The notes under the pieces were generated by a model. It saw only the letters and a program-made list of their open reading frames with translations. It did no database searches and had not been told where the DNA came from. This document shows, piece after piece, positions 17,315-36,600 of a stretch of 64,000 bases of DNA. The first letter of the stretch is position 1. Every line of letters begins with the position of its first letter. Source of the DNA: Escherichia phage vB_EcoM_NBG2. The stretch lies in the sequence record NC_054925.1. The stretch is one strand, 5' to 3'. A program made the translations under genes and the position numbers.

Positions 17315-17332
17315 TTTGTGTTCCTCCGTAGT

Positions 17333-17375
17333 TGATAGTTGTATAGTACCACAGAGGAACAGTCTTGTAAACCAC
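17333..17375 (-). promoter_or_regulatory. early promoter with conserved leader
   Basis: Minus strand GTTTAC (17372..17367) and TGGTACTATAC; leader CAACTATCAAC repeated at other promoters. Confidence 0.55.
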
Positions 17376-17677
17376 TAAAAGAAACTTCTTTCACAATTTT
17401 TTCCACTGAACCATGCGCTTACCGCTTTCTTAGTCTCAGGAGCAGTGTTATCCATAAACCATTCAAAGGCAGCCTTTTTATGATTCTGGAGGGCTTCTCG
17501 GGCTTTAATCTGCTCACGGTCTATTAACACTAACATATGAGCCTTTCTTGTCACCATGGGCTTCTTATGATTTTTTGAATACTCCCAGTCATTTGTCCAT
17601 CGCATTGTCGTTGCAAATTGAAATACAGCTTCTTTAATCTTAGTTTCGTAAATTTCACGAGCCTTTGAGTATAACAT
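17375..17677 (-). CDS. hypothetical protein (100 aa, start revised)
   Basis: Start at MLYSKAREIY with GGAGGT SD. Confidence 0.5.
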   Translation of the reverse strand: MLYSKAREIYETKIKEAVFQFATTMRWTNDWEYSKNHKKPMVTRKAHMLVLIDREQIKAREALQNHKKAAFEWFMDNTAPETKKAVSAWFSGKNCERSFF

Positions 17678-17778
17678 CACTACCTCCATTTACCAGTTTA
17701 ATTCTAGTCATCTTTTTAATGGCAGTCCATATAATCTATTTCTGAACTGCCTTTTTGTCATAGAAGTCCTCTTATGAA

Positions 17779-18747
17779 TTATTTCAGAAGAGTAACCTCA
17801 GCAATTTCTTCCCAACCGTTTTTGTCGGTCATAATAAAGTCAGCAAGATAAAGAGCAGTACGCAGTGAAACATTGCGTAAACGATTAACATTGACTTTCA
17901 TCCATGATAATGCTTTATAAGTTTCTTCATCAGAAAGACCGCGCTTTTGCATCATGTCAGTTGAAAGAATAACATCTTCAACCCTGACCATAATTTCTTC
18001 ATTAGTGTGAACACCCAAATCTAAATAAACCGAGCGGGACACTAATGCTTGTAAATGTGGAGCAAGTTTAGTACCGCGGTCTAATTCGCGGTCAATGTCA
18101 ACGTTTGTGATAAAAACAATCGTTCCTTTAAATTCAAACTCACGGTCAATGCCTTTTTCTTCTAAGTAAGAAGATGCAGTGCTCCAGCAGACTTTACGGG
18201 TCTCTCCAGTGTCCAGAGCAGCTTTTAGAAGATTAAGAATGTCCATATCAGAGAAAACATCCACATCATCAATCAAAAGGACAGAGTTCTCTTCACGATT
18301 ATACCAAAGCTGCTCATAAAGACCAATACCAGAGATTTTACCATTAATGCTTTTATATTCAATGTATCCAATATCGTTTGCTTTATTTAAAGCTTTATCT
18401 AAAGAATACGTTTTACCAATACCTGCTGCGCCAGAGATAATTAATGAACGAATATTTCCATTAATAATACCATTCGTCATCATTCCCATAACATTAAATC
18501 TTTTATTAATGCGGGTTTTCATATCTTCATATGATTCTTTAACTTCTTCAACTTTTACACCATCATATGAAATATCTGATTTGTAAACCCAAACACCACG
18601 ACGTTTACCGTCAATTTCAACAAAAACTTTACCATCTCCTTGTGCATCTACCGGAGCATTATCTGGGAACCATTCGCCTAAGAGCTCAAAAGTTCCAGAG
18701 ATTTCTTTACCGAAGTAGATACCCTTATTGATAGTTACAGTTTTCAT
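17779..18747 (-). CDS. P-loop NTPase (AAA-like ATPase) of unknown function (322 aa, start revised)
   Basis: Walker A SGAAGIGKT, Walker B VLLIDDVD; start at MKTVTINKG with GGAGA SD and early promoter upstream. Confidence 0.65.
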   Translation of the reverse strand: MKTVTINKGIYFGKEISGTFELLGEWFPDNAPVDAQGDGKVFVEIDGKRRGVWVYKSDISYDGVKVEEVKESYEDMKTRINKRFNVMGMMTNGIINGNIRSLIISGAAGIGKTYSLDKALNKANDIGYIEYKSINGKISGIGLYEQLWYNREENSVLLIDDVDVFSDMDILNLLKAALDTGETRKVCWSTASSYLEEKGIDREFEFKGTIVFITNVDIDRELDRGTKLAPHLQALVSRSVYLDLGVHTNEEIMVRVEDVILSTDMMQKRGLSDEETYKALSWMKVNVNRLRNVSLRTALYLADFIMTDKNGWEEIAEVTLLK

Positions 18748-18774
18748 TTTATTCTCCAAATCCGTATCAGTTGA

Positions 18775-18815
18775 TAGTTGTATAGTACCATAAAGCTTTA
18801 TGCTTGTAAACAGTT
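18775..18815 (-). promoter_or_regulatory. early promoter with conserved leader, preceded by terminator hairpin
   Basis: Minus strand GTTTAC (18811..18806) and TGGTACTATAC (18790..18781). Confidence 0.55.
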
Positions 18816-18834
18816 TTGTGAAAAATTTTTGAAA

Positions 18835-18862
18835 TAAAAAAGGGAGCCCGAAGGCTCCCTTA
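18835..18862 (-). terminator. intrinsic terminator after NTase-fold gene
   Basis: Minus strand GGGAGCC-TTCG-GGCTCCC followed by TTTTTT. Confidence 0.65.
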
Positions 18863-19876
18863 TCATTTATAATAACTTCGGTGGTTTTCAAGATAAACCC
18901 TCTCAAGGAAGTCATCCCAGAAACCCATGTCTACTTTTTGCTGCATACCGTTCTTAGAAGCTTCAATGGATGCTGCTTCTACTTGATCGACCACATCTTC
19001 CAAAAACTCTTGGACAGTTTTAAATGGATGTTTACCCAACTTCACGTCGAGAATAAATGGAGCATCTTGGAGTGGATAAACCAAATCACCAGTTTTGTAA
19101 ATTTCCAATAGTTGGAGTCCACCACGGCAAGCATGACTAAGAGCTTTCCAGTCAATGCCCTCATTCGCTTCAGCCTTACGAGCACGTTCGCCGTATTCAG
19201 CATCTAATTTGTTCAGTGACTGCTTAAGCTCAATAAGAGAAAGCGTTGTCTGATATTTACGACCCAACACAGTATAGAACGTTTGCGGGCCTGTTTTCTC
19301 GTGATTATGGAACACCCATTCACAGAACTCGTTCTCTGGAAGACGATGCTTAATATCTTCAACTTTAGTGCGACGCTGCTTAATGGAACCGTCTTCTTGA
19401 TAATCAACCCACTGATCGGGGATTTGATTAACTACTTTCAATACATCACGCAATGCGGCCAAACGAGAACCCTTAACACCATATTTAGAAGCTTGCTTGC
19501 GAACATATCCTAAATAGGATTTCATGTTAGTTGTATAAAACCGTGAACGATTGTCTTGAATAAACTTCCATACATCAGGCAAATCTGATTTAACTACTAG
19601 TTCAGGTGGAGTGTGGAGCATATCCAATGCTACAGTTTCACCATCTGCTGCTAATTTAAAGAAATACTTAAGACTGTATAGTTCATGGTCAATATCATCT
19701 TTAGTGTTTTTAGATGATGTGTTGTTAGTGTTTTTACTCATATGCTCTTTAACATTTCCGATAAGAATATCGCGAGCAGGAGGAACAAAGATTTCTTTAA
19801 AATCTACATCAGATTCTGGAGTAGAAGTTCCATAAAGATGACTACCAAAATAGCTTTTCATTACTGTTTTCATCAT
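18863..19876 (-). CDS. nucleotidyltransferase-fold protein (337 aa)
   Basis: N-terminal YFGSHLYGTSTPESDVDF fits the Pol-beta-type NTase signature G-S-x10-D-x-D; hairpin plus T6 terminator just downstream. Confidence 0.6.
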   Translation of the reverse strand: MMKTVMKSYFGSHLYGTSTPESDVDFKEIFVPPARDILIGNVKEHMSKNTNNTSSKNTKDDIDHELYSLKYFFKLAADGETVALDMLHTPPELVVKSDLPDVWKFIQDNRSRFYTTNMKSYLGYVRKQASKYGVKGSRLAALRDVLKVVNQIPDQWVDYQEDGSIKQRRTKVEDIKHRLPENEFCEWVFHNHEKTGPQTFYTVLGRKYQTTLSLIELKQSLNKLDAEYGERARKAEANEGIDWKALSHACRGGLQLLEIYKTGDLVYPLQDAPFILDVKLGKHPFKTVQEFLEDVVDQVEAASIEASKNGMQQKVDMGFWDDFLERVYLENHRSYYK

Positions 19877-20334
19877 TCAGCCTTATATTCAATAACAGGA
19901 CATACTTTAGCTTTACGAGCTTTTAAAAATTCGACGATAATAGATTTCTTGGGTTGAATAGGAGGTAAACCTTTATACGCCCTATCAATATTTTCTACAT
20001 GTAAAGCATAATCCTTTTTCCATTTATAATCTTTATATTTTTCATGCAGTTGTGCAGGAATAACACATGAACCGATAATAAGTAAAACAAGCAAAATAGC
20101 AAGTATAAATGCTGATGGAATAAGAGTCCATAAACTACCAAAAATAAGCCATTTCTGTATGATTTCTGCACAGATGATAGTTAGACCTGCGAGTATAGTA
20201 CATCCGAAAAAAGAAACGAAAAATGTAGGAATAACAATAGACCAAAAATACGCGCACAGTGTCTTAGGTCGTTTCCATTCATCATTAAACATTTTGAATA
20301 ATTTATAATGCCAAGAGTTTTCATTAATAATCAT
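19873..20334 (-). CDS. integral membrane protein (153 aa)
   Basis: Three or four hydrophobic helices. Confidence 0.5.
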   Translation of the reverse strand: MIINENSWHYKLFKMFNDEWKRPKTLCAYFWSIVIPTFFVSFFGCTILAGLTIICAEIIQKWLIFGSLWTLIPSAFILAILLVLLIIGSCVIPAQLHEKYKDYKWKKDYALHVENIDRAYKGLPPIQPKKSIIVEFLKARKAKVCPVIEYKAE

Positions 20335-20336
20335 AA

Positions 20337-20858
20337 TTATCCTTTCATTGAAGGTGTAACAGTTGTTAAATACTTAATCATAGCTTCAGCTTCTGATTTT
20401 GATAATGAAATTTCTCCATTGTTTTGACGAATAGAAATAAAATCCGGATGACGGTCACCACCAGCTTTTAAAACACACATATAAGTATCAGTTTCATCTT
20501 CAATATTTGAAATGATTGAAGCAGTTCCACATGAATGTGGTTTTTGATAAATCAATACAGCTTTTCTTCCACCGTTTGACTGTTCATAAACTTTTAACAC
20601 ATCAAACAAATCACTTCTTTTATCAATAGCTAAGATGTTGTTTTCATCTTCAATGTTAAATCCTTCGGATACTTCATAAAGCGTTACCCATAAATCACCT
20701 ATATCGATAGTAGCATTTTCCTTTCCATGACTTTCAAGAGCATGACAAATTTTCTTGATTTCATCATAACTCATTTTAATAATATCATCTCCTTGAATAA
20801 GGAAGATGTCATTTTTAAATTCAACACGAATTAAACCGCTTCCACTTGAAATAAACAT
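20337..20858 (-). CDS. hypothetical protein (173 aa), tandem paralog A
   Basis: C-terminus SKSEAEAMIKYLTTVTPSMKG resembles that of the next gene. Confidence 0.55.
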   Translation of the reverse strand: MFISSGSGLIRVEFKNDIFLIQGDDIIKMSYDEIKKICHALESHGKENATIDIGDLWVTLYEVSEGFNIEDENNILAIDKRSDLFDVLKVYEQSNGGRKAVLIYQKPHSCGTASIISNIEDETDTYMCVLKAGGDRHPDFISIRQNNGEISLSKSEAEAMIKYLTTVTPSMKG

Positions 20859-20864
20859 ATTTCC

Positions 20865-21431
20865 TCACTTTGAAATCATAGTTGGAATGACAGAATCAAG
20901 ATAAGTCTTTAGCGCAATAGCTTCGTCTTTTGTAAATGTAACAATATGTGCTCGAAAATCGTCAATTTGGCGAATAGTTAAGACATCTCCTTCTTCATAA
21001 CATTTTGATACATTTAAAACAGTTTCATCATTCTGATCGCACTGATCGCAAGCGTTAGTAATAATAGCATTGCAATTTTTGAGCCATTTTAAACTATGTT
21101 TTCTTTCATTAGAATAATAAAAATATTTAATCTTAGCTATAAAACTATCCCAATGGATAACTGATAAACACATTGACTCACTTTTAATATTAAATCCTGG
21201 GCATGAAGAATAAAAATGAATTTTGTGCTCATCATTGATGCTTACTATTTTATCAGTATAAGGATATTCAATTTGGATTAAATGAACGATTTCACTAGGC
21301 GTAAAATATAGCATATCGTCTTCTTGCGTCAAACGATACATGTTATTTACTTTTTCTATAGCCAATTCACCAAAAAGCGGACTAACTTCTAATACTAATC
21401 GTTTCATATTGATTCTCTTCGACTCACTCAC
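20865..21431 (-). CDS. hypothetical protein (188 aa), tandem paralog B
   Basis: C-terminus TKDEAIALKTYLDSVIPTMISK resembles previous gene; first codon in track is GTG so true start uncertain. Confidence 0.5.
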   Translation of the reverse strand: MSESKRINMKRLVLEVSPLFGELAIEKVNNMYRLTQEDDMLYFTPSEIVHLIQIEYPYTDKIVSINDEHKIHFYSSCPGFNIKSESMCLSVIHWDSFIAKIKYFYYSNERKHSLKWLKNCNAIITNACDQCDQNDETVLNVSKCYEEGDVLTIRQIDDFRAHIVTFTKDEAIALKTYLDSVIPTMISK

Positions 21432-21559
21432 AATTACATACTCCTTTGAATAATATCAATAATGTTGTTCACCAGATTATAAGTAAACATTGGGTAATTA
21501 TATTGAATCATCACATACACAACAAACAAAACTTTCATTCTCTTCTCCTTGACCGTTGA

Positions 21560-21600
21560 CAAGATTACTATACCATAACCTTGTCAACTTGTAAACCATT
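21560..21600 (-). promoter_or_regulatory. early promoter
   Basis: Minus strand GTTTAC (21596..21591) and TGGTATAGT (21575..21567). Confidence 0.5.
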
Positions 21601-21772
21601 AAATGACGTTTTCAATAAAATTCTGAAGCTTTGTGTGAGCATCAACCATAATTTTCATTTCTTCCTTTGCGAAAGCTGTACCTCTTTCCCGAGCAGAATA
21701 CTCATAGTCAGAAACTGCATTAGCATATTCTTCAATTAGCTTCATTAAAAACATTTGCTTTTCAGTTTTCAT
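21599..21772 (-). CDS. small ORF (57 aa), below ORF-track cutoff
   Basis: Frame MKTEKQMFLMKLIEEYANAVSDYEYSAREGTAF...; lies between promoter and downstream genes. Confidence 0.35.
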   Translation of the reverse strand: MKTEKQMFLMKLIEEYANAVSDYEYSARERGTAFAKEEMKIMVDAHTKLQNFIENVI

Positions 21773-21956
21773 TATTCCACCTAATCATTTCAAGATATTG
21801 AACTAACTTAGCTTTGGATTTATCCAAATCCTTTTTAGCTGCTTCTATACCGTCGTATGAATATCCTTCACAGTGCTCAACTGCCAATTGATATGAATCT
21901 ATTTCAATATCACGTGCTAATTTAATGATTTTTTCAAACTGTTCACGTGTTAGCAT
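21762..21956 (-). CDS. hypothetical protein (64 aa)
   Basis: ORF track. Confidence 0.4.
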   Translation of the reverse strand: MLTREQFEKIIKLARDIEIDSYQLAVEHCEGYSYDGIEAAKKDLDKSKAKLVQYLEMIRWNNEN

Positions 21957-21958
21957 AA

Positions 21959-22162
21959 TTAAACTCTCGTATTATGATCGATAATTTCATCAAGAAACAT
22001 ATCTAACGCTTCTAAAGCATTATCAACTTTAGCTTCAAATTTTTCAATACCTTTATTTGCAATGCCTGCCGAAAACCAAGCAAAGTCACTAAGTTCCTCA
22101 TCTGCTTTGCGAATTAAAGCTACCAATTCTTTAATTTTATCTGCTTGTTCAATTCTAGTCAT
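21959..22162 (-). CDS. hypothetical protein (67 aa, start revised)
   Basis: Start MTRIEQADK coupled to upstream stop (TAATG). Confidence 0.4.
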   Translation of the reverse strand: MTRIEQADKIKELVALIRKADEELSDFAWFSAGIANKGIEKFEAKVDNALEALDMFLDEIIDHNTRV

Positions 22163-22350
22163 TATTCCACCACATATGAAAGAGAGAATATTGCACACGC
22201 CATATGAGTTGCAGCTTCATCACACATATCATAACGTTTCTTAAGAAGTTCTACAAGTTCTTCACTAGTAACTTCATCCATGTCGACGAAAAAATCACCA
22301 TTAATGATGACGTAGATATTTCCTTCTTGATTAAGTGCTTCAATTTTCAT
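22162..22350 (-). CDS. hypothetical protein (62 aa, start revised)
   Basis: Start [10 protein letters not shown] with GAGGAGA SD downstream of early promoter. Confidence 0.45.
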
Positions 22351-22369
22351 GATGTTCTCCTCTTTATCC

Positions 22370-22410
22370 GATAGTTGTATAGTATCACAGCTCAAATGGA
22401 AAGTAAACCG
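22370..22410 (-). promoter_or_regulatory. early promoter with conserved leader, preceded by terminator hairpin
   Basis: Minus strand GTTTAC (22408..22403) and TGATACTATAC. Confidence 0.55.
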
Positions 22411-22417
22411 GTAAAAT

Positions 22418-22445
22418 GAAAAAAGTCTCCCGAAGGAGACTAATG
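22418..22445 (-). terminator. intrinsic terminator
   Basis: Minus strand AGTCTCC-TTCG-GGAGACT followed by TTTTTT. Confidence 0.65.
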
Positions 22446-22832
22446 TTATTCGAGGGAAAGAAGATATTTACTCTGGTAAAACATCCCAGTAATATCATCT
22501 ATCGTGCTTTGAATGGCTGGAGGCATTTCTTTATAAATGCTGTTAGATTGGTCTAGTATGCGATCAATCATTTTAATTGTGTCAGTAGGAAGTTTACTGG
22601 CATCTGGAATAGAAGGCGTGTATTTTCTACCAGAATACCCCAAATATTGCTCACCAAATTTATCAATCAAATCTGGCAACTCAGAGAAAATAAAATCGTA
22701 TGCTTTGTGTCTAGCATAACTTTTAGTTTCAAAATGCGCAGAATGAAAATAAGCTTGTGTAGCCATTAATAAACCTAAGTATTCATCTGCCTTTGAAGGT
22801 TTTCCACTTTGTGAAAAGTCGCTGAATTTCAT
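22446..22832 (-). CDS. hypothetical protein (128 aa)
   Basis: ORF track; hairpin plus T6 terminator downstream. Confidence 0.5.
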
Positions 22833-23122
22833 TCAGTCTCCAATTTAATGTTCATAATTCTAGCGTATGATTGTGCCATCTCCGCGCCTCGCTCTATACA
22901 TTCAAAATCGGAAGAGCACGGGTCATTTTTATAAGTCGTTCGCATAAAACTATAGAACTGTTCAGATGATTCTACGCTTTTGTTTTCAAAAAGCATATAA
23001 ACGTGTCTAATACCAGATTCCATAAATTTATCAAAATGAGGATCGACATTCGCTTCAATTGGTGGAGATAAAGCAAACGCTAATCCTAGCATGGCAAATA
23101 GTGCCGTTGCTTTTAAGGCCAT
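22829..23122 (-). CDS. rI: lysis-inhibition regulator rI (signal-anchored periplasmic protein)
   Basis: 97 aa; MALKATALFAMLGLAFALS signal-anchor followed by conserved periplasmic domain; position next to tk. Confidence 0.85.
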   Translation of the reverse strand: MALKATALFAMLGLAFALSPPIEANVDPHFDKFMESGIRHVYMLFENKSVESSEQFYSFMRTTYKNDPCSSDFECIERGAEMAQSYARIMNIKLETE

Positions 23123-23134
23123 AAAGGCCTCCTA

Positions 23135-23347
23135 TCATTTTTGTCCTGTATTTACTTTATGCCGATGCACGGCCTTAACTTTATCAAGGTATTTTTCAAA
23201 ATTTCGCAATCTAGTATAGTCTGCCGGAGATTGGTTGAGTGATACTTCTCGACGCAAAGCTGAAATGATATTTCCAACTTCCCTACGAATTTCATCTAAT
23301 TGAAGCACAGTAAGATTGCGAAGTTGCTTTTCAGTTAATTGTAGCAT
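23135..23347 (-). CDS. hypothetical protein (70 aa)
   Basis: ORF track. Confidence 0.45.
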
Positions 23348-23389
23348 ATATACCCCTTTAGTTAGATAAACCTATTTATAACTTTTGCA

Positions 23390-23971
23390 CTAACCGAGCT
23401 TTTTAGTTAATTCATTCCAATGTTTTCTACACAAAGAAACATAAATTTCATCACCAATACAGATTTGATTACCTTCTTTAACTGGTGTTCCATCTTCCGT
23501 TAATCGAGCTGTCATAATCGCTTTTTTACCGCAATGACAAACCGCCTTTAGTTCAATAAGTTTATCTGCAATCGCTAAAAGTTCTTTAGAACCTTCAAAC
23601 AATTTTCCAGCGAAATCAGTCCTTAATCCATAAGCCATAACAGGAACATTATATGTATCAACAATTCGACTTAATTGATGCACCTGTTCAGTTTTTAAAA
23701 ACTGAGCTTCATCTACAAATACGCAATGAATATCTTTTTGTGCTTCAGCCCATTTATAGAACTCGAAAATATCCATATCATCTGTAATAATATTTGCTTC
23801 CTGCCTAATTCCAATGCGAGAAACGACTTCACAGACAGAATCGCGAGTATCAATAGCAGGCTTAAGAACTAATACACTCATTCCACGTTCTTTATAATTA
23901 TGTGCAGCAGTCAAAAGAGAAGCAGATTTTCCAGCATTCATTGCTGCATAAGTAAAAATTAAACTCGCCAT
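23390..23971 (-). CDS. tk: thymidine kinase
   Basis: 193 aa; P-loop AAMNAGKS, Walker B FVDEAQF, C-terminal Cys zinc cluster. Confidence 0.92.
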   Translation of the reverse strand: MASLIFTYAAMNAGKSASLLTAAHNYKERGMSVLVLKPAIDTRDSVCEVVSRIGIRQEANIITDDMDIFEFYKWAEAQKDIHCVFVDEAQFLKTEQVHQLSRIVDTYNVPVMAYGLRTDFAGKLFEGSKELLAIADKLIELKAVCHCGKKAIMTARLTEDGTPVKEGNQICIGDEIYVSLCRKHWNELTKKLG

Positions 23972-23980
23972 ATCACCTTC

Positions 23981-24166
23981 TTAAAGCGTATTCACATAAG
24001 CTATTAATTCATTTTCTTTCTTATCAAACCGATCAGCAAATTCTTCCTGCTGTTCGGGAGATAACGGGCCGTATTCATCATAAAAGGTGTTTGCTTCTGT
24101 ATGCTCATCTAGAAGTTCATGGATAAGCTCAAATAATTTATCTTTTTGTTCTTTACTCAGACTCAT
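23981..24166 (-). CDS. hypothetical acidic protein (61 aa)
   Basis: ORF track. Confidence 0.4.
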   Translation of the reverse strand: MSLSKEQKDKLFELIHELLDEHTEANTFYDEYGPLSPEQQEEFADRFDKKENELIAYVNTL

Positions 24167-26095: not shown

Positions 26096-26557
26096 TCATT
26101 GAGTTTTAATTACTGCTTTAGAAGCCTTTCCTGGTAAACGACGACTATTGATAATTGCCATCCTGCATTGAAGCGACGGGTCTTTGAACTTCGCATTAGG
26201 TTTACAAACTGTAAATCCAAGCCAAAGATTTCCATCTGTGATTTCTAAACGTCCAGGACGGTATTCAACCCCATCAATAAAATCCTCATCAATGTCAGGA
26301 CGCGGAGGCATACTCAGGAATTCATTAACTTCTAAAACATGGTCTTTTATTTTGTGGAATAATTCAAAAACATATGTCTCATCAATCTCCCGTTGAATTG
26401 CACGATCAAGAAGATGCTGAGAATATTTTAGATGAAACGATGAGACCCCTGCTGCTTTTGATGCCTCACGAATCTCATTGTTAATTTGACGAAACTCCGA
26501 CTCAAAATGACGACGAAGCTTATTTCGACGGATAAAAACTTCTGTATTGATAGTCAT
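26096..26557 (-). CDS. regB: sequence-specific endoribonuclease RegB
   Basis: 153 aa; MTINTEVFIRRNKLRRHFESEFRQ... matches T4 RegB as recalled; early promoter and GGAGA SD upstream. Confidence 0.88.
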   Translation of the reverse strand: MTINTEVFIRRNKLRRHFESEFRQINNEIREASKAAGVSSFHLKYSQHLLDRAIQREIDETYVFELFHKIKDHVLEVNEFLSMPPRPDIDEDFIDGVEYRPGRLEITDGNLWLGFTVCKPNAKFKDPSLQCRMAIINSRRLPGKASKAVIKTQ

Positions 26558-26579
26558 GTTGTTCTCCTCTTAACTGATA

Positions 26580-26618
26580 GAAAAATTATACCACAGTCAA
26601 GAGGAAAAGTAAACAGTT
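26580..26618 (-). promoter_or_regulatory. early promoter upstream of regB
   Basis: Minus strand GTTTAC (26614..26609) and TGGTATAAT (26593..26585). Confidence 0.55.
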
Positions 26619-28657: not shown

Positions 28658-28762
28658 TTCTGTATTTACCCATTACCGCACTCAGGCTCGACCTTATTAC
28701 AGGTTGGCGGGAATCCCTCATAGAATCATGAGGTCCAGTTTGTTCCCATATTTCTTATTTGC

Positions 28763-29236
28763 TTATTTGAACGATTTAACGTACTGAATAGAACCTTTAC
28801 TATTTACAAAGGCAATTTTACCATTTTTATTATACATTGTAGCAGTACGTTGATAGCCATAAGTTTGTTTACCAGATTGATAACCAACTAATGCAAAATT
28901 ATCTTCACCCATTTTATTCTGTTTAGCGCGAATGCGTTCATGACCATGTGCCATAAGAACCTTAGCATCACCAGTTGCAATGGATCGACGAGTTTTTTCA
29001 TCTTCAACTGTATTAACAAAGTCGTCAAATGAATCAAATTTAGCATGAGATTTATTATACAGTTTTCCATCTACTGCATAATTATATCCCTGTACATCCA
29101 TCTCAACTTCTGTACCATCATCCAATACAGCAGTAATTTTTTGACCTTTTTTAAATTTCAAAAGATCAGTAAAAGATTCAGCGATAATTTGAGAATTAAT
29201 AGCTGCTTCAGTGATAAATTCTTGATATGTTTTCAT
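28763..29236 (-). CDS. internal (capsid-injected) protein with capsid-targeting sequence
   Basis: 157 aa; begins MKTYQEFITEA, the T-even capsid-targeting sequence pattern; adjacent to e as ip genes are in T4. Confidence 0.7.
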   Translation of the reverse strand: MKTYQEFITEAAINSQIIAESFTDLLKFKKGQKITAVLDDGTEVEMDVQGYNYAVDGKLYNKSHAKFDSFDDFVNTVEDEKTRRSIATGDAKVLMAHGHERIRAKQNKMGEDNFALVGYQSGKQTYGYQRTATMYNKNGKIAFVNSKGSIQYVKSFK

Positions 29237-29284
29237 ATGTTTCCTTTAAATATTTTAATTAGTAATTTGTCTCTTCAAGCAACT

Positions 29285-29322
29285 GTGAATATACTATCAC
29301 AATTCTAGGAGAAAGTAAACAA
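29285..29322 (-). promoter_or_regulatory. early promoter upstream of internal protein gene
   Basis: Minus strand GTTTAC (29320..29315) and TGATAGTATAT. Confidence 0.5.
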
Positions 29323-29324
29323 CT

Positions 29325-30293
<969 letters not shown>

Positions 30294-30297
<4 letters not shown>

Positions 30298-30782: not shown

Positions 30783-31141
30783 TTAATTTTCCTACAATCA
30801 CTCACAAACTCTTTCATTGACTCATTTTCAATATAAGACATGTAGCTATTATATTCCTTTAATTGTATTTTGTAATCCTTTTTTCTTTGCCAATTTATTT
30901 TAAAATTATCATAATGAAAATATAAAATGATACCAAAGAATGAAAACAATGAAATAATTTTAGTATAACAAAGCTCATTCCAAACTTCTGTTATATTTAC
31001 TGTGCCGTCGATGTTTAAAATAAGACAGTCAATTAACAATCCAAAAAGACTACCCGCAAGAGCTGCAGCCAACGCCACAGCAAAAATTAAAAATGACTCA
31101 GAAAACGAATATTTGACTTTATTTAGTTTTGGCTTTTGCAT
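30779..31141 (-). CDS. membrane protein (120 aa), tandem family member 2
   Basis: Two TM helices; C-terminal FVSDCRKIK. Confidence 0.5.
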   Translation of the reverse strand: MQKPKLNKVKYSFSESFLIFAVALAAALAGSLFGLLIDCLILNIDGTVNITEVWNELCYTKIISLFSFFGIILYFHYDNFKINWQRKKDYKIQLKEYNSYMSYIENESMKEFVSDCRKIK

Positions 31142-31536
31142 CGTGATTCCTTAACAAATTTCATAATTTCATTAAATTCATACTCAGCAAGTTTAAGCTG
31201 GTGTTCCTTTTTAATCTTTTTACACTGAGCTTTCCAATCGTGTACACGTTTACGATAATGTCTTCCTTGATACCAGTATCCTACCCAATTTACGGGTACT
31301 AATAAAAGTGGAACTACCAATGGAAGAATTAGCATTAACACAAGTATTTCGCCAGAATCAATATCAGTCATAACATCTAAAACACCTCCAATAATCAATA
31401 GAATTACAAATGATATAAGTATAACAGGACCTATTAATACATCAGTAGAAATTATCTGGTGCTTTGATTCATACTTCAAAGGTTTACTTGGAAGGTATAG
31501 TGATGGTTTTGACATATTCTCTACATTCCTTAACAA
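31123..31536 (-). CDS. membrane protein (137 aa), tandem family member 3
   Basis: Two TM helices; C-terminal FVKESRCKSQN. Confidence 0.5.
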   Translation of the reverse strand: MLRNVENMSKPSLYLPSKPLKYESKHQIISTDVLIGPVILISFVILLIIGGVLDVMTDIDSGEILVLMLILPLVVPLLLVPVNWVGYWYQGRHYRKRVHDWKAQCKKIKKEHQLKLAEYEFNEIMKFVKESRCKSQN

Positions 31537-32092
31537 ATTTTTCTAATAATAAATCGCTTTCAAAATTGGGATTTTCCACGAATTTATCAAAAAGATCATC
31601 AACAATAGTTAAGATATTCTTTTTACTAAGAATACGCTTATTTTCATGCTTCGTTTCAGAATCAACTATAAGAGTAAAGAAATATTTCTTGCCCTGAAAT
31701 TTTACAGTAGTATCAATATAGAATAAATTTGACTTTTGTAAATTACGTTTAAACCATGCGTCACTTAAACTATAAACACCGAGATAATCATAATCGTCGT
31801 TTAAATAACATACTGTCCATTCAGGAGAAATGAAATCAGTAAATTCAACATCAAAATCACGCGTCAATGAATGAATTGATTCAATACTGTTAATAAGTAT
31901 TCCAGGACGTATTAAAGACTTTTTACCTCTGGAAAATCTTCCAGAAAGACTTTCATCAGTTTCATATGAAGAACCCCAATAATAATTACGTCCTTCTGCC
32001 ATACGTTTAAGAGCATTTAATAATTGGTCTGGAACATCAACCTGCCTTTGGAACTCTTCAAACATTGAATTGAAATCACTTTGCATTCTCAT
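31484..32092 (-). CDS. hypothetical protein (202 aa)
   Basis: ORF track; C-terminal EKFVKECREYVK echoes the motif of the three downstream membrane genes. Confidence 0.5.
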   Translation of the reverse strand: MRMQSDFNSMFEEFQRQVDVPDQLLNALKRMAEGRNYYWGSSYETDESLSGRFSRGKKSLIRPGILINSIESIHSLTRDFDVEFTDFISPEWTVCYLNDDYDYLGVYSLSDAWFKRNLQKSNLFYIDTTVKFQGKKYFFTLIVDSETKHENKRILSKKNILTIVDDLFDKFVENPNFESDLLLEKFVKECREYVKTITIPSK

Positions 32093-32133
32093 TCCTATTT
32101 ACTCCAAGTAATAGGGGCCGAAGCCCCTTATCA

Positions 32134-32727
32134 TTATTTCAGAGAATTAATGTATTCCTGAACATCGGCAGAGGTAGTTTCAACCCCAGAAATATTACCG
32201 TTAAAGGTTTCAACTCGAGCAAGAGTATCTTCAATATCAACCTTAGTCAGTGCTGCAATTTCAACTACATCATCAGCAGTACTAATTCCAAGGGCATTTG
32301 CTGCACGAGTTTCACGGATATATTCCAATTTAACCGCAAGTTCTTGGCGTGCATCATCCAATTCAACTACTTTCTTAGCGATTTCAATTCGCATTTCAGC
32401 ATAACCATCAGCTTTAGTAGTCAACTGCTCAGCTGTTCGACGATATAGTAAACCGAGTTTAGCATGCATTGTTACATCTTGACCTTCGGAAAGAAGCTTG
32501 CGAATTTCACGCTCTTTTGATTCAGCCTGCTTATTCTTTTCGACAATAAGTTCACGAATACGTTTTTCTTCATTAATAGATTTAACAGAAGCAGTTTTTA
32601 GATCTTTAATCTTATCAAGTAGTTTTGCTGCTGCAGCAGTATACTGTTCTTCAACAGATAGATTTTTAGCCATAGCAGAACCAAGTTTAGTGCGAATAAA
32701 CTCAACAATTTTCTTCAGTGTGTTCAT
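32134..32727 (-). CDS. coiled-coil protein (197 aa), possibly PspA/IM30-like
   Basis: Continuous charged heptad-rich helices with N-terminal amphipathic segment; assignment to PspA family is tentative. Confidence 0.45.
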
Positions 32728-32764
32728 AGTATTTCCTTAGGTTAATTAAGATTTAAAATCCATG

Positions 32765-32797
32765 AGAGTATTATACTCCGGATAGTTTGTAAACTAT
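32765..32797 (-). promoter_or_regulatory. early promoter
   Basis: Minus strand GTTTAC (32794..32789) and GAGTATAAT. Confidence 0.5.
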
Positions 32798-33015
32798 GTT
32801 AACATCGCCTTTTGCTGCTTTATAACCTTCAGCCCAAGATACAACCGAGTTTTTATCTGAAGATTCAAATTCTGGCATTGGGCTTTCGCCAATGTTCACG
32901 CAGTATGTTTCTTCATTTTCGTCGAACCAAATAATTAAAGTAGTCATTTATTTCTCCGTTTCTGTATTTGTTTTGATAAGTCTATAATAACACCATCCTT
33001 GGTGTTTGTACACAA

Positions 33016-33279
33016 TTATTTCATATTATTGAAATATTCTTCTGCGATTTCGTCGTTATCATGGTAAACTTTAGAAGACAGTTTAACATAACCTTCAGCA
33101 GTGAACATGTTAATCACAACCTTTACAGTATACCACTGACCATCTTCATTACCCATTACTGCGTAAGTTTCAAACATCGGATGATCAGGACCGATAACTT
33201 TAATATCATTCACTGTACGACCGAAATCTTCTGAAACACATTTCATAAAGAAGTTGAACAGTTCGCCGTAATTATCCAT
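33016..33279 (-). CDS. hypothetical protein (87 aa, start revised)
   Basis: Start MDNYGELFNFF with GGAGA SD downstream of early promoter. Confidence 0.45.
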   Translation of the reverse strand: MDNYGELFNFFMKCVSEDFGRTVNDIKVIGPDHPMFETYAVMGNEDGQWYTVKVVINMFTAEGYVKLSSKVYHDNDEIAEEYFNNMK

Positions 33280-33314
33280 TTCATTCTCCAAGTTGTTTTC
33301 TGTATCAGTAGTTG

Positions 33315-33355
33315 ATAGTTGTATAGTACCATGGAAGGACAAGGATGTAAACAGT
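33315..33355 (-). promoter_or_regulatory. early promoter with conserved leader
   Basis: Minus strand GTTTAC (33352..33347) and TGGTACTATAC (33331..33321). Confidence 0.55.
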
Positions 33356-33485
33356 TTTGTGAAAAAAATTTTTAAAAAGTTTTAGGGAATTCTAGGGTCA
33401 GGAGGGGCAATTAAAAGGTAGGATAATATATTATAAAGGGTATAAACTAAATGATGCCTAGAGAGGCCCGGAAAGGCCTAGATAC

Positions 33486-33516
33486 CAAAAAGCCCCAACC
33501 TTTCGGTCGGGGCTAA
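33486..33516 (-). terminator. intrinsic terminator (copy 1 of identical 31-bp element)
   Basis: Minus strand GCCCCGACC-GAAA-GGTTGGGGC followed by TTTTT; identical to 34042..34073 element. Confidence 0.6.
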
Positions 33517-33521
33517 GAATG

Positions 33522-33995
33522 TTATTTGATTTGTTTAGCAGACCAAATGCGGTCTTTAATAATTTTTTGGATGTCTTCAACATACTCAAGAGAGTGAGCA
33601 TGTGGATTATCTTTGAAACTATAAGCACGAGCTAGTTTTTGGCCTTCAGTTTTGATTACTAAAAGCTCTTTAAGGATAGCTTCATATTTGGAGATAATTC
33701 CTTTAACAATATTTTTTTCTTGTGCAGCTTTAGGATCTGCTTTAGGAGCAGGTTTACCCGAAGCCTTTGCAAAAGCAGCGCCAGTAGCAACTAGACTTTT
33801 CCAGGCCATACTAACCGCATTTCCTGTAAATCCTTCTGCTTTCATGTCGCGAGCAAATTGGAATCGCGATTCGTCAGAAGCATCTTTATAAGAATATTTA
33901 CCCGCTGCAATGGCTGCTTTTGCGACAGCTTGAATTTCGGTGCTAGATGCTTCATTTAACACCGCTTCATTTAAAAATTGAGTATATGATTTCAT
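33522..33995 (-). CDS. internal-protein-like protein with capsid-targeting sequence (158 aa, start revised)
   Basis: Start at MKSYTQFLNEA (CTS-like); Ala/Lys-rich; flanked by identical 31-bp terminator hairpins. Confidence 0.55.
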   Translation of the reverse strand: MKSYTQFLNEAVLNEASSTEIQAVAKAAIAAGKYSYKDASDESRFQFARDMKAEGFTGNAVSMAWKSLVATGAAFAKASGKPAPKADPKAAQEKNIVKGIISKYEAILKELLVIKTEGQKLARAYSFKDNPHAHSLEYVEDIQKIIKDRIWSAKQIK

Positions 33996-34041
33996 CTTAT
34001 TTCCTGTTTTAATTCGTGGATTTAATATACTAATATTTATA

Positions 34042-34073
34042 CTAAAAAGCCCCAACCTTTCGGTCGGGGCTAA
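34042..34073 (-). terminator. intrinsic terminator at end of tRNA/stable-RNA unit (copy 2 of identical 31-bp element)
   Basis: Minus strand GCCCCGACC-GAAA-GGTTGGGGC followed by TTTTT. Confidence 0.6.
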
Positions 34074-34099
34074 GCCTTGCGGCAACCTTGTCGGGGTTC

Positions 34100-34387
34100 C
34101 ACCTGCTAAGGCAAGTGTTTGTACGAAACGCCGGGATTCGAACCCGGTTATTAAGTAGTTGACGCTACTCAATATTTTTAAAAGGCCATATCTCGACCAT
34201 ATCCGAACGTTCCGTCAAAAACGCTACTCGGCTTATGGCAAAGATATTTCCTCGAATCGATAATTCGGTGCGCCGTTTCTGCTGTGATATAAGGGGACAT
34301 TAACAAAACATAAAGATTTATTAATGCCAGTCCTTAAACAGGGAACATCAGTCCGACGACTTGCCGGTAGCGACCCGGCTTCTTGTC
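34100..34387 (-). ncRNA. candidate small stable RNA region downstream of the tRNAs (T4 species 1/2 RNA equivalents?)
   Basis: No protein-coding frame; contains a tRNA-like T-arm (CCGGGTTCGAATCCCGG at 34131-34147) without a matching acceptor stem; lies between tRNA-Arg and a terminator. Confidence 0.3.
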
Positions 34388-34463
34388 TGGTCGAGGCAGT
34401 AGGGATCGAACCTACGACCCAGGACTTAGAAGGTCCTTGCTCTTCCTTCTGAGCTATGCCTCG
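34388..34463 (-). tRNA. tRNA-Arg (anticodon UCU)
   Basis: Cloverleaf read by hand: acceptor CGAGGCA/TGCCTCG, anticodon loop CTTCTAA, T-loop TTCGATC, encoded CCA. Confidence 0.8.
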
Positions 34464-34467
34464 TATT

Positions 34468-34542
34468 TGGCGGACGTGATAGGATTCGAACCTATAACCA
34501 ATCGCTTAACAGGCGATCGCTCTGCCATTGAGCTACACATCC
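34468..34542 (-). tRNA. tRNA-Asn (anticodon GUU)
   Basis: Acceptor GGATGTG/CACGTCC, anticodon stem ATCGC/GCGAT with loop CTGTTAA, T-loop TTCGAAT, encoded CCA. Confidence 0.7.
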
Positions 34543-34546
34543 AAAT

Positions 34547-34633
34547 TGGTGGGGAGTGGTGGAGTCGAACCACCCGAGTCGCAATGACAATGAATTTACA
34601 GTCCACACCGCTACCCCTACGGGATAACTCCCC
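34547..34633 (-). tRNA. tRNA-Tyr (anticodon GUA), type II with long variable arm
   Basis: Acceptor GGGGAGT/ACTCCCC, anticodon loop CTGTAAA, long variable arm, T-loop TTCGACT, encoded CCA. Confidence 0.65.
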
Positions 34634-34642
34634 AAATTAATT

Positions 34643-34717
34643 TGGTGGCCCTGGGTGGAATTGAACCACCATCTGGCGATTATGAGTCGCGTGCTTGAAC
34701 CTTCCAGCTACAGGGCC
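34643..34717 (-). tRNA. tRNA-Ile/Met (anticodon CAU; probably the AUA-reading tRNA-Ile as in T4)
   Basis: Acceptor GGCCCTG/CAGGGCC, anticodon loop CTCATAA, T-loop TTCAATT, encoded CCA. Confidence 0.7.
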
Positions 34718-34718
34718 T

Positions 34719-34794
34719 TGGTGCTGATTGACGGAATCGAACCGCCGACCTTCTCATTACAAGTGAGTTGCTCTACCTACTGAGCTAAATCAGC
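34719..34794 (-). tRNA. tRNA-Thr (anticodon UGU)
   Basis: Acceptor GCTGATT/AATCAGC, anticodon loop CTTGTAA, T-loop TTCGATT, encoded CCA. Confidence 0.8.
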
Positions 34795-34799
34795 AAAAC

Positions 34800-34889
34800 T
34801 GGCGGAGGCGATAGGATTTGAACCTATGAGTCGCCGGAGCGACTGCCGGTTTTCAAGACCGGTGCATTAAACCACTCTGCCACGCCTCC
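34800..34889 (-). tRNA. tRNA-Ser (anticodon UGA), type II
   Basis: Acceptor GGAGGCG/CGCCTCC, anticodon loop CTTGAAA, long variable arm, T-loop TTCAAAT. Confidence 0.8.
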
Positions 34890-34891
34890 AG

Positions 34892-34965
34892 TCTCCATAC
34901 AAGGATTTGAACCTTGGACCTCCTGATCCCAAATCAGGCGCTCTACCAAACTGAGCTACACGGAG
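34892..34965 (-). tRNA. tRNA-Pro (anticodon UGG), CCA not encoded
   Basis: Acceptor CTCCGTG/TATGGAG, anticodon loop TTTGGGA, T-loop TTCAAAT; 3' end followed by AC rather than CCA. Confidence 0.75.
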
Positions 34966-34975
34966 TAAATTAAAT

Positions 34976-35049
<74 letters not shown>

Positions 35050-35054
35050 AAATT

Positions 35055-35141
35055 TGGTGCGAGAAGTGGGACTCGAACCCACAAGGAAATCATTCCGCAG
35101 CATTTTAAGTGCTGTGCCTTTACCAATTTGACCATTCTCGC
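35055..35141 (-). tRNA. tRNA-Leu (anticodon UAA), type II
   Basis: Acceptor GCGAGAA/TTCTCGC, anticodon loop CTTAAAA, long variable arm, T-loop TTCGAGT, encoded CCA. Confidence 0.8.
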
Positions 35142-35142
35142 G

Positions 35143-35215
35143 CTGGGAATAAAGGACTCGAACCTTTGCATCCTGGAATCAAAATCCAGTGCCTTACCAA
35201 CTTGGCTAATTCCCA
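35143..35215 (-). tRNA. tRNA-Gln (anticodon UUG)
   Basis: Acceptor TGGGAAT/ATTCCCA, anticodon loop TTTTGAT, T-loop TTCGAGT; 1-nt spacer to tRNA-Leu (dimeric precursor arrangement). Confidence 0.8.
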
Positions 35216-35312
35216 ATTATTAACAAAGGCTCTTTAGCAAGAACCCTTGATGATAGAGGGTATTAATCAGTGCGGTATGAGTTAATAATAACAAATAATT
35301 CTTAAAGCATAT

Positions 35313-35606
35313 TTACCATTTATGATAATACATATTTACGATGCATTCAAGACCCAAAGGATTCTTGAAAATATCATATTCAAGAGGACCTTTTTCTGTT
35401 TCAATAAAGAAATCAAAATTTACTGTATTAAATTTACGGTCTTCCTTTACTAATTTAACTTGAGAAGATGAACGGTCAATGTAAACCTTTTCAACTTCAA
35501 AACATGTTAAAATGCCATAATCATCAATCAAGGCTTTAGCTGCTTCTTGATCATATTTATATCCATTTTCAATGGATGATACTTTAGCATAAAGAATCAT
35601 TATCAA
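35313..35606 (-). CDS. hypothetical protein (97 aa)
   Basis: ORF track. Confidence 0.45.
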   Translation of the reverse strand: MIMILYAKVSSIENGYKYDQEAAKALIDDYGILTCFEVEKVYIDRSSSQVKLVKEDRKFNTVNFDFFIETEKGPLEYDIFKNPLGLECIVNMYYHKW

Positions 35607-35986
35607 CCTTCATCAACAATAGTATGAGTATGGGCATTTACAATTTGCCACCAATCAAAGCGATTAGAACCATACATCGGTTTGTTTTCATTTTCTTTGA
35701 TAATATCACGAAGTTCATCTTCAGTAGCGGCTTTCGCGATTAAATCAGCATATCCACCACGAGGATAATAATTATCACCTGCAAAAAGTAAAAAGTTTGG
35801 TTTAATGTTATTGAACTCTTCAAGAGTAATAACTGTTCCTGATGGTAGTTGAACAATCTCTACATATTTATATCCTAATTTTTGAGCAGCATCTACTGCT
35901 TCAAGCAAAGTATCATGAGCCCATCCAATTTGACAACCTGGCTTTTCAGATGGATTAGCCTGATAATCCGCATACACTTTGTACAT
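35603..35986 (-). CDS. hypothetical protein (127 aa, start revised)
   Basis: Start MYKVYADYQ with AAAGGTGA SD. Confidence 0.5.
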   Translation of the reverse strand: MYKVYADYQANPSEKPGCQIGWAHDTLLEAVDAAQKLGYKYVEIVQLPSGTVITLEEFNNIKPNFLLFAGDNYYPRGGYADLIAKAATEDELRDIIKENENKPMYGSNRFDWWQIVNAHTHTIVDEG

Positions 35987-35987
35987 T

Positions 35988-36173
35988 CTATTCACCTTTA
36001 GAAATTTTATCCATAACGATAGCAATTAAACCAATTAAAAATGCTACTACAAGTGAAAACACATTTTCTGCTGTAGTCAATAATCCGCATATAAATCCAA
36101 CAAACATTGAAAAACTAAAAGCAGAAGCAGAAATTGCAATAGCAACATTTCGAATTAATTCACAACGTTTCAT
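35988..36173 (-). CDS. small membrane protein (61 aa)
   Basis: Two hydrophobic helices; early promoter upstream. Confidence 0.45.
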   Translation of the reverse strand: MKRCELIRNVAIAISASAFSFSMFVGFICGLLTTAENVFSLVVAFLIGLIAIVMDKISKGE

Positions 36174-36194
36174 TTTATTCTCCTCGGTAGTTGA

Positions 36195-36235
36195 TAGGGT
36201 AATAGTATCACAACTAAAACCCTATGTAAACAACT
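36195..36235 (-). promoter_or_regulatory. early promoter inside an inverted repeat
   Basis: Minus strand GTTTAC (36230..36225) and TGATACTAT; flanked by TAGGGT/ACCCTA inverted repeat. Confidence 0.55.
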
Positions 36236-36249
36236 TTGTGAAATATTTA

Positions 36250-36537
36250 TTACAAAAGATTTTTAGCAATAATCTTGAGATGTGCCGCAGAAATGTGTTT
36301 AGCTTTAAACAACGCAGTTTCTTCAGCAGGAGAGATAACGATTGTAGCACCATCCTTTTTAGCAGACCACCCATCACCTAGGTAAACAGTACCTTTGATT
36401 TCTTCGCCATCAACCAGACTAATCATTGGTTTACCTTCTCGTCCTTTATTTGCTTTAATAACTTCAGAAGTAAGAGTAGCCTCGGTAATGGTAGAAACCG
36501 GGGTAGTTGTAGAAGTAAATTCTTTAAATGTTTTCAT
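36250..36537 (-). CDS. ipI: internal protein I (capsid-injected; anti-restriction against GmrSD-type enzymes in T4)
   Basis: 95 aa; MKTFKEFTSTTTPVSTITEA... capsid-targeting sequence and overall match to T4 IPI as recalled; early promoter upstream. Confidence 0.85.
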   Translation of the reverse strand: MKTFKEFTSTTTPVSTITEATLTSEVIKANKGREGKPMISLVDGEEIKGTVYLGDGWSAKKDGATIVISPAEETALFKAKHISAAHLKIIAKNLL

Positions 36538-36559
36538 TTTATTTTCCTAATTAATTTTG

Positions 36560-36600
36560 ATGAGGTAATAGTATCACTACCTCATCAACGTGTAAACAAC
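36560..36600 (-). promoter_or_regulatory. early promoter upstream of ipI, inside an inverted repeat
   Basis: Minus strand GTTTAC (36597..36592) and TGATACTAT; TGATGAGGTA/TACCTCATCA inverted repeat spans the -10. Confidence 0.55.

Follow-up and report, generated by a model that had tools for sequence, protein, structure and literature searches.

Within a 64,000-nucleotide segment of the Escherichia phage vB_EcoM_NBG2 genome (NC_054925.1; hereafter the window), five sites on the minus strand carry almost the same 20-25 bp, raising the questions of what this block is and whether it takes part in the rearrangement of the genes around it. The five sites are best explained as predicted sigma-70-dependent early promoters of the bacteriophage T4 type, belonging to a family of paralogous cassettes that would act, as a by-product, as patches for recombination; the probability of this explanation as a whole is put at roughly 0.88, on the strength of sequence comparison.

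The window is a segment of a Tequatrovirus (T4-like) genome with a G+C content of 35%. Its 17-37 kb portion matches SH7, PYps14T, RB14, vB_EcoM_SA21RB and many other Tequatrovirus genomes at 95-97% identity, with 95-99% of its length covered. Alignment to annotated T4 (AF158101) identifies 11.5-40 kb as the early region running nrdC.1...nrdC.11 - mobD.x - rI - tk - vs - regB - e - tRNA - ipI - 57 - gene 1, within which 16-38 kb is the nrdC-tk-vs-e-tRNA-ipI part. Transcription of this early region is wholly on the minus strand, and the sign of the GC skew flips at about 40 kb.

Architecture of the repeated block

The exact 20-mer GTTGATAGTTGTATAGTACC (plus strand) occurs at 17331-17350, 18770-18789 and 33311-33330, three times against 0.01 expected by chance in the 64 kb, and allowing up to three mismatches yields no additional match in the window. 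The remaining two copies are diverged, with 16 of 20 positions identical to the 20-mer at 22365-22384 and 15 of 20 at 36188-36207. A gapped core, TACTATNNNNCTATC, read on the minus strand, matches precisely the five named sites and no others in the 64 kb (0.06 expected), bearing out the preliminary description, which had reported at least five near-identical copies on this strand. A repeat search independently clusters the same five sites into one 71-nt family (D1) at 61-70% identity.

Each of the five sites reads, on the minus strand, GTTTAC, a 17-bp spacer and TG(G/A)TACTAT, followed by ACAACTATC or TACCCTATC. Sites 1, 2 and 4 have TTTACA-17-TACTAT with TG directly upstream of the -10 hexamer, while sites 3 and 5 read TGATACTAT. 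An A/T-rich tract resembling an UP element takes the form (A)nTTTTTCACAAAa(c/g)T at sites 2, 4 and 5 and TTTTTTCATTTTACCG at site 3; at site 1 the upstream tract falls in coding sequence (GAAAGAAGTTTCTTTTAGTG) and is the weakest of the five. At every site the -10 hexamer is followed, at a distance of about 15-45 nt, by a Shine-Dalgarno sequence (SD) and an ATG. The genes so preceded are homologues of T4 nrdC.8, nrdC.10, mobD.5, e.8 and trna.4, all of which match PHROGs of unknown function. The earlier identification of these sites as early promoters thus holds for all five, each of which also has an orthologous promoter in T4, and in the Lutter record, as annotated by its depositors, a promoter is marked at the orthologous position of every one. 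The repeat had further been said to span the -10 and the transcribed leader, of which the first part stands. With the -10 hexamer at -12 to -7, the 20-mer covers about -14 to +6, that is, the extended -10 (TGn-TACTAT), the discriminator and only the first six or so transcribed bases; the 5' untranslated region (UTR) proper (CTGATACrGA...TTGGAGAATrAAATG) is common only to sites 2 and 4.

The T4 genome has roughly 30-40 early promoters (Pe), on which Liebig and Rueger in 1989, Wilkens and Rueger in 1996 and Miller et al. in 2003 are reportedly sources. These promoters are characterized by GTTTAC at -36 to -31, an A/T-rich UP tract and a GT-rich extended -10 (PMC1524935), and have been described as an 'uber' UP/-35/TGn/-10 class with 'additional regions of consensus' (Hinton review, PMC2988021). 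The five sites share the GTTTAC, the 17-bp spacer, the TGn, a TAnnAT at -12 to -7 and an UP tract with the TTTTTCACAAAAC signature; they precede early genes, are co-oriented, and all occupy positions orthologous to T4 promoters. The differences are not substantive: a few spacer substitutions separate them from T4, amounting to 0-2 differences over the 30-nt -35 to -10 stretch, and all five use TACTAT rather than TATAAT. For recognizing such promoters, only the T4-specific pattern discriminates. Matches of the window to GTTTAC-N18-TAYWRT number 12 (0.12 expected), and every one is on the minus strand and lies below 37 kb, whereas a generic sigma-70 scan is uninformative, returning 93 promoter-like sites against 77.8 +/- 10.4 in shuffled sequence.

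A promoter sub-family and its paralogous copies

The block is not peculiar to the five sites. The six exact copies of the 20-mer in the T4 genome precede imm.1, nrdC.8, nrdC.10, e.8, motA and denB; mobD.5 and frd.3 have a near copy in front of them, and trna.4, frd.2 and ndd.4 have the TACCCTATCAAC variant. A scan of IMG/VR found 21 loci in a handful of T4-like contigs, a sample that shows the variety of downstream genes and is not usable for statistics; taking T4, the window and these contigs together, the genes that follow the exact 20-mer are of seven kinds. The 31 T4 early promoters that were aligned have the consensus ttTtcA.aaA.ttGTTTACat...tgTGgTAttATa.aacTATcaacta, and the motif is, as judged from this alignment, the strongest version of the family consensus around +1. 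The 20-25 bp block is one sub-family (GGTACTATACAACTATCAAC and TGATACTATTACCCTATCAAC) of T4 early promoters.

Such likeness could in principle come from function alone, the motif being kept only as an optimal early promoter contacted by RNA polymerase from -14 to +6, with no role in rearrangement. The distribution of variation fits this view, as the -14 to +6 block is almost invariant among orthologues while the flanks vary, and extra consensus positions have been noted in T4 early promoters (PMC2988021). However, equally canonical promoters of the window, at 6712, 14366, 21567, 26585 and 29291, use TATAAT, TATAGT or TATTAT and are followed by unrelated sequence, so the exact block is not obligatory for function. 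Furthermore, distant copies share sequence beyond the functional elements. The spacer AAGCATAAAGCTTTATGG and a terminator tail are identical upstream of T4 nrdC.10 and frd.3; the spacer AAGACTGTTC(T/C)TCC recurs upstream of imm.1, nrdC.8 and ndd.4; the 5' UTR CTGATACGGATTTGGAGAATAAAATGAAA is common to imm.1, nrdC.10 and denB; and five other loci of T4 resemble the window cassette at 18741-18874, with 77-87% identity over 93-108 bp. Since spacer, UP tract, terminator tail and 5' UTR are shared between distant copies, these are paralogues, mosaic in their make-up, of one cassette some 60-105 bp long, and not only convergent promoters. Functional convergence as the whole explanation is consequently rather unlikely, though it keeps more weight than any other alternative, partly on account of the breakpoint data described below.

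Stem-loops at the promoters

The sites had been described as usually lying just downstream of a hairpin terminator. This is so at sites 2 and 3, where terminators lie 28 nt and 15 nt, respectively, upstream of the -35; at site 4 the nearest terminator is about 140 nt upstream (33491-33514), and a terminator scan found no canonical terminator (G+C stem plus T-run) upstream of sites 1 and 5, which have a stem across the -10 instead. At site 1 this stem-loop has a folding energy of -20.2 kcal/mol (z -5.5) and a 14-bp stem, GUUCCUCUGUGGUA/UACGGAGGAAC, with the SD in its 3' arm; at site 5 the values are -14.2 kcal/mol and z -2.3, with the stem ATAGGGT/ACCCTAT. Sites 2-4 fold no better than their shuffles. 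Other early promoters of the window carry comparable structures, namely the stem spanning the -10 of the mobD.2a promoter (-18.3 kcal/mol, z -5.5), the hairpin of the vs.3 promoter (-22.4 kcal/mol, z -4.8) and the fold at the ipI promoter (-18.1 kcal/mol, z -4.6).

In 10 of the 31 T4 early promoters an uninterrupted run of 7 or more bases in the spacer is complementary to the downstream sequence, where 1.2 would be expected from permutation of the partners. As the sequence of the arms differs at each promoter, this amounts to covariation among paralogues. Among orthologues covariation is too sparse to be informative about the stems, the cores being nearly invariant in the 11 relatives compared below; SfPhi01 has one U-G-compatible change at site 1, which is anecdotal. 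The dyad symmetry around the -10 is thus significant, but it does not count as a new kind of feature, since stem-loops between the promoter boxes or overlapping the -10 already belong to the published promoter-early stem-loop (PeSL) elements (PMC2839356).

The 3' arm contains the SD at nrdC.8, at vs.3 and at T4 denV/ipII, so a read-through mRNA would mask the SD and a promoter-proximal mRNA would not. The hairpins spanning the -10 may therefore make translation of nrdC.8 and vs.3 depend on the promoter from which the mRNA originates, as an early-promoter counterpart of the switch at e, soc and 49. The T4 genes e, soc, 49 and I-TevI are subject to translational control by a promoter inside a hairpin (PMC3014915), and nrdC.8 and vs.3 would share with them a 5' arm upstream of the start site and an SD in the 3' arm. 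The internal promoter is late in those genes and early here, and the translational effect here is a prediction.

The conservation of the block also raises the idea of a dedicated binding site. Only about a third of the early promoters carry it, and its conservation exceeds what sigma-70 would seem to require. The invariant -14 to +6 block (GGTACTATACAACTATCAAC, variant TACCCTATCAAC) might be the recognition site of a phage function, the most interesting candidate being the shut-off of early promoters 2-3 min after infection and another a factor that targets recombination; this is unlikely. Slightly less likely still is an operator or recognition site, in DNA or at the RNA 5' end, for a dedicated phage factor serving in shut-off, Alt-dependent stimulation or targeted recombination. 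The block does extend beyond the canonical sigma-70 elements and has a short direct repeat within it, ACTAT-N3-ACTAT; how early promoters are shut off is described as unknown in PMC2988021 and PMC3014915. However, no such factor is known and none is pointed to by the data, and the extended -10, the discriminator and +1 are all contacted by RNA polymerase itself. In addition, the variants TACCCTATC and AGACCTATC co-vary with the spacer so that the stem is kept, which speaks for structure rather than a fixed protein site.

Gene-content changes at cassette edges

To what extent the predicted promoter cassettes coincide with changes in gene content can be seen from the window at 15-38.5 kb compared, by chained high-scoring segment pairs (HSPs), with T4 and ten other relatives (L001, L005-L014; 11 phages altogether). 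Fourteen loci in this 22-kb region are polymorphic. Site 2 (18757-18771) is the exact junction of gene insertions of 275 bp or 458-493 bp in five of the 11 phages (SH7, Ge15, PYps14T, G9062 and EcNP1). The PYps14T insert has a strict early promoter on either side, and its left crossover comes directly after CTATCAA (...TACTATACAACTATCAA); in SH7 the downstream promoter copy has the variant -35 GTATAC. At site 5 the junction is that of an extra internal protein (IP) gene of 274 bp, present in PYps14T, G9062 and Ge15; the overlap measures 24 bp (36191-36214), and the promoter copies on the two sides of the gene both carry GTGATACTATTACCCTATC.

Promoters outside the set of five behave in a similar manner. 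At the ipI promoter a 123-bp junction overlap (36503-36625) flanks a 207-bp Ip5 insertion in RB3 and RB14, and the Ip4 promoter is the right edge of the polymorphic IP/denV locus, whose right boundaries lie at 29201-29336. At the e.7 locus, where eight of the 11 relatives differ, modules of a promoter plus a gene are exchanged, extending from the e.8 stop codon, directly at which the swap starts, or from the -35 edge, to the e.6 leader. Early promoters stand at the edges of the alternative segments found at the nrdC.10, e.7, Ip4/denV and trna.4 loci, and at e.7 they stand at both. The junction overlaps measure 21, 24, 49 and 123 bp, and at the nrdC.10, trna.4 and ipI junctions they consist of promoter-cassette sequence. 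Comparison of the SfPhi01 (L008) trna.4 promoter with window positions 36202-36231 and 36568-36597 shows an ipI-type spacer (GCTGATGAGGTA) joined to a trna.4-type downstream half (TACCCTATCAAC), with the junction in the common GTGATACTATTACC core; this promoter has the composition of a chimera, consistent with recombination between the neighbouring trna.4 and ipI cassettes.

Several results weigh against a part for the five sites in rearrangement. The preliminary description had placed them at the boundaries of gene blocks that differ from T4, and the alignment of the window to T4 contradicts this: none of the five is a breakpoint, sites 1, 2 and 3 lying inside long colinear blocks (11543-19877 and 20840-23971), site 4 at 165-330 bp and site 5 at about 200 bp from the nearest breakpoint. 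Across the 11 relatives the association with boundaries of gene content stands at sites 2 and 5 and fails at sites 1 and 3, which are a junction in none of them; site 4 is not itself a junction either, the nearest events being at 33484-33538 and 32984-33016. In a strict test, events were found at 5 of 9 early-promoter junctions and 13 of 41 other gene junctions (one-sided Fisher p = 0.17). Counting in two variant promoters gives 7 of 11 and 11 of 39 (p = 0.037), so that significance needs this reclassification. Moreover, intergenic DNA with a promoter is also where insertions are tolerated, and co-location is no proof that the promoter mediated an event. About half of the events in the region do not involve a promoter, being insertions of homing endonucleases or tRNAs or insertions within operons; no early promoters are carried by the homing-endonuclease events (17772, 19877-20840 and the tRNA region), the tRNA events or the in-operon events (21419, 23971 and 24167).

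The lack of junctions at sites 1 and 3 and the result of the strict test are what a purely functional account of the motif would lead one to expect, the co-location with indels then merely reflecting the insertion tolerance of intergenic DNA. Against that account stand the junction overlaps of 24-123 bp that are themselves cassette sequence, and the existence of chimeric cassettes such as the SfPhi01 trna.4 promoter. In sum, the sequence evidence for crossovers in the cassettes is good, and the statistical association in this sample is weak.

The preliminary description had also likened the sites to the PeSL elements of T4-type phages, and the likeness is supported, the same kind of element having been described for two phage pairs. 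Experiments on RB49/phi1 established the PeSL model, placing crossovers in the interval from the -10 to the ATG and revealing mini-circles (Arbiol et al., 2010; PMC2839356); stem-loops in these elements may also lie upstream of the -35. PeSLs were later extended to the T4/PST and KVP40/nt-1 pairs, with the T4/PST consensus TTTACW-N17-TAYWAT accompanied by stem-loops (Comeau et al., 2014; PMC4122927). As in those phages, a strong early promoter is combined with a stem-loop and an SD/ATG, in hyperplastic regions and in front of small open reading frames (ORFs) of unknown function. The published indels of near relatives have a copy of the element on each side; here such a pattern is seen at the nrdC.10, e.7, IP and trna.4 loci and is absent at sites 1 and 3. 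The combination of promoter and stem-loop was found at four of the five sites; site 4 has no adjacent stem-loop, and sites 1 and 3 have no associated plasticity. The RB49/phi1 elements differ in using near-perfect TTGACA/TATAAT boxes and polyG/polyC stems, and are analogues, not homologues.

A second precedent comes from the T-even IP genes, which are flanked by early-promoter repeats of about 70 bp (Repoila et al., 1994, EMBO J 13:4181, as related in PMC2839356 and PMC4122927). Site 5 and the ipI promoter are those elements, and ipI, Ip5, the extra IP gene and Ip4 each have an early-promoter repeat and a conserved N-terminal leader, with the number and identity of the genes varying between phages. 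Sites 1-4 differ in lying outside the two IP loci, so the sub-family is used genome-wide, as is also noted in PMC4122927. Cassette shuffling in this region is the PeSL or IP-locus mechanism already proposed in the literature, and the early-promoter consensus, the IP-locus repeats and the PeSL model together cover all elements of the finding, which in this respect is already known.

Under the explanation favoured here, that of promoters in paralogous cassettes, each of the five sites would drive one small accessory early gene on the minus strand. The near-identity of the copies would be kept by strong selection for a very strong promoter and also by occasional homologous recombination or gene conversion between copies, for which T4 has an efficient recombination system. 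They would also act, as a by-product, as short patches of homology at which promoter-led gene cassettes are inserted, deleted or exchanged, as suggested by the nrdC.10, e.7, Ip4/denV, trna.4 and ipI junctions, where the crossover points fall within the -10/+1 core or at the margins of the cassette. The stem-loops, whether upstream terminators or structures across the -10, would insulate each cassette from read-through, and those at nrdC.8 and vs.3 would also hide the SD in read-through transcripts.

It is very improbable that the repeat is instead a mobile element in its own right, of the miniature inverted-repeat transposable element (MITE) or integron attC kind, moved by a transposase or a site-specific recombinase. 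Dispersed copies, gene cassettes bounded by copies and the presence of stem-loops are features that such an element would have. However, the copies have no terminal inverted repeats in common, the junction sequences contain no target-site duplications, the extent of similarity differs from pair to pair in a mosaic fashion, and the homing endonucleases form a separate class of event without promoters. The crossover points vary, falling in the -10/+1 core, at the -35 edge, at the SD or in the terminator, and as the ends of the element are not constant and flanking duplications are lacking, this reading was rejected. Chance similarity in A+T-rich DNA, to which the low G+C content might lend itself, is rejected by the shuffling controls, with three exact 20-mers, five gapped cores and 12 promoter patterns far above their expected numbers, and its probability is negligible.

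Coordinates and neighbouring features

The coordinates of the promoters, terminators and stem-loops are collected in Table 1. One of the terminators is itself repeated. A 36-nt direct repeat of the hairpin at 33482-33517 and 34039-34074 (family D8, 97% identity) flanks a 522-bp cassette that holds an ORF of 157 aa (33522-33995; phrog_2280, unknown function) with a TATAAATA late-promoter match in front. The cassette is absent from T4, RB3 and pSe_SNUABM_01, in which the HSPs overlap by 35-36 bp at this point, and G9062 and EcNP1 have a further cassette of 634-659 bp at the same 33491-33514 hairpin. From its sequence, the repeat looks like a case of terminator-mediated gain or loss of a cassette.

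Table 1. Positions of predicted promoters, terminators, stem-loops and absent segments (window coordinates unless T4 is named; strand as read for the feature)
Feature	Position	Strand	Remarks
Site 1, promoter of nrdC.8 homologue (gene 16787-17314)	17331-17372	-	-35 GTTTAC 17372-17367; -10 TACTAT 17348-17343; 20-mer 17331-17350; overlaps nrdC.9 3' end; identical element in T4 at 53914-53943
Site 2, promoter of nrdC.10 homologue (ATG 18747)	18770-18811	-	T4 orthologue 55355-55384
Terminator hairpin AAGGGAGCCTTCGGGCTCCCTT + T-run, after nrdC.11	18840-18861	-	upstream of site-2 -35; annotated terminator in Lutter, G9062, Ge15
mobD.2a homologue promoter	21567-21596	-	differing -10 (TATAGT) and leader; 14-bp stem across -10
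Site 3, promoter of mobD.5 homologue (22162-22350)	22365-22408	-	-10 context TGATACTATACAACTATCGG; T4 orthologue 58751-58780
Terminator hairpin AGTCTCCTTCGGGAGACT + T-run, after rI.-1	22424-22441	-	upstream of site-3 -35; annotated terminator in G9062, Ge15, Lutter
vs.3/regB promoter	26585-26614	-	-10 TATAAT, unrelated leader; SD within hairpin 3' arm
Promoter of Ip4-type internal-protein gene (28763-29236; phrog_3155, internal virion protein)	29291-29320	-	repeat family D11
Variant early promoter GTGTACA...TGTTATTAT	32984-33013	-	leader AGACTTATCAAAACAAA; heads ORF 32771-32947, which replaces T4 e.7
Site 4, promoter of e.8 homologue (33016-33279)	33311-33352	-	long UP-like A/T tract TTTTTAAAAATTTTTTTCACAAAAC; T4 orthologue 70667-70696
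Terminator hairpin AGCCCCGACCGAAAGGTTGGGGCT + T-run	33491-33514	-	within 36-nt direct repeat copy 33482-33517
Site 5, promoter of trna.4 homologue (35988-36173)	36188-36231	-	core TGATACTATTACCCTATCAAC; directly follows ipI stop codon; T4 orthologue 73543-73572
ipI early promoter, sixth TGATACTAT sub-family member	36568-36597	-	11-bp perfect inverted repeat TTGATGAGGTA/TACCTCATCAA around -10
Stem-loops spanning the -10	17310-17372, 21534-21596, 26552-26614, 36535-36597	-	spacer pairs with first transcribed bases
Stem-loops spanning the -10 in T4	20583, 57961, 65385, 73910, 123064, 129890, 133302		spacer pairs with first transcribed bases
Sites of segments absent relative to T4	3428/3453, 7928-7948, 9224/9227, 19877-20840, 34433-34698, 42872

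Relative to T4, the window lacks the segments with mobB, mobC, the nrdD intron with I-TevII, mobD, segB and segC. The mobD position carries two ORFs instead, at 19873-20334 (phrog_944, membrane protein) and 20337-20858 (phrog_1502), and the segB position carries extra tRNAs (Asn, Tyr, Met). A 644-bp insertion relative to T4 is present between gene 18 and gene 19 (62588-63232, plus strand), with an ORF of 214 aa containing Cys-rich and H-N-type motifs that is probably an HNH-type homing endonuclease. Further insertions lie at 1457-2052 (595 bp, near gene 47/a-gt) and 5004-5265 (260 bp, near gene 55). Tandem repeats of 24 nt (8 codons; GTTGAAGGTAATGG...-like), five to six in number, occupy 42060-42203 on the plus strand within the gene 5 homologue and presumably code for the octapeptide that recurs in the C-terminal beta-helix needle of gp5.

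For the Tequatrovirus early region, the analysis is mainly a confirmation, on a new segment, that a T4 early-promoter sub-family takes the form of a dispersed cassette of about 60-105 bp. Swaps of accessory genes (the nrdC.10 insert, the e.7 alleles and the internal-protein genes) have their junctions inside these cassettes or at their edges, as proposed by the PeSL model and by the 1994 work on the IP locus. At the same time the PeSL model is tempered, given that about half of the gene-content events of the 22-kb region are not promoter-linked, two of the five promoters are structurally inert and the association is weak. In addition, the pattern GTTTAC-N18-TAYWRT, searched for on the early strand, provides a highly specific promoter finder for the annotation of such genomes.

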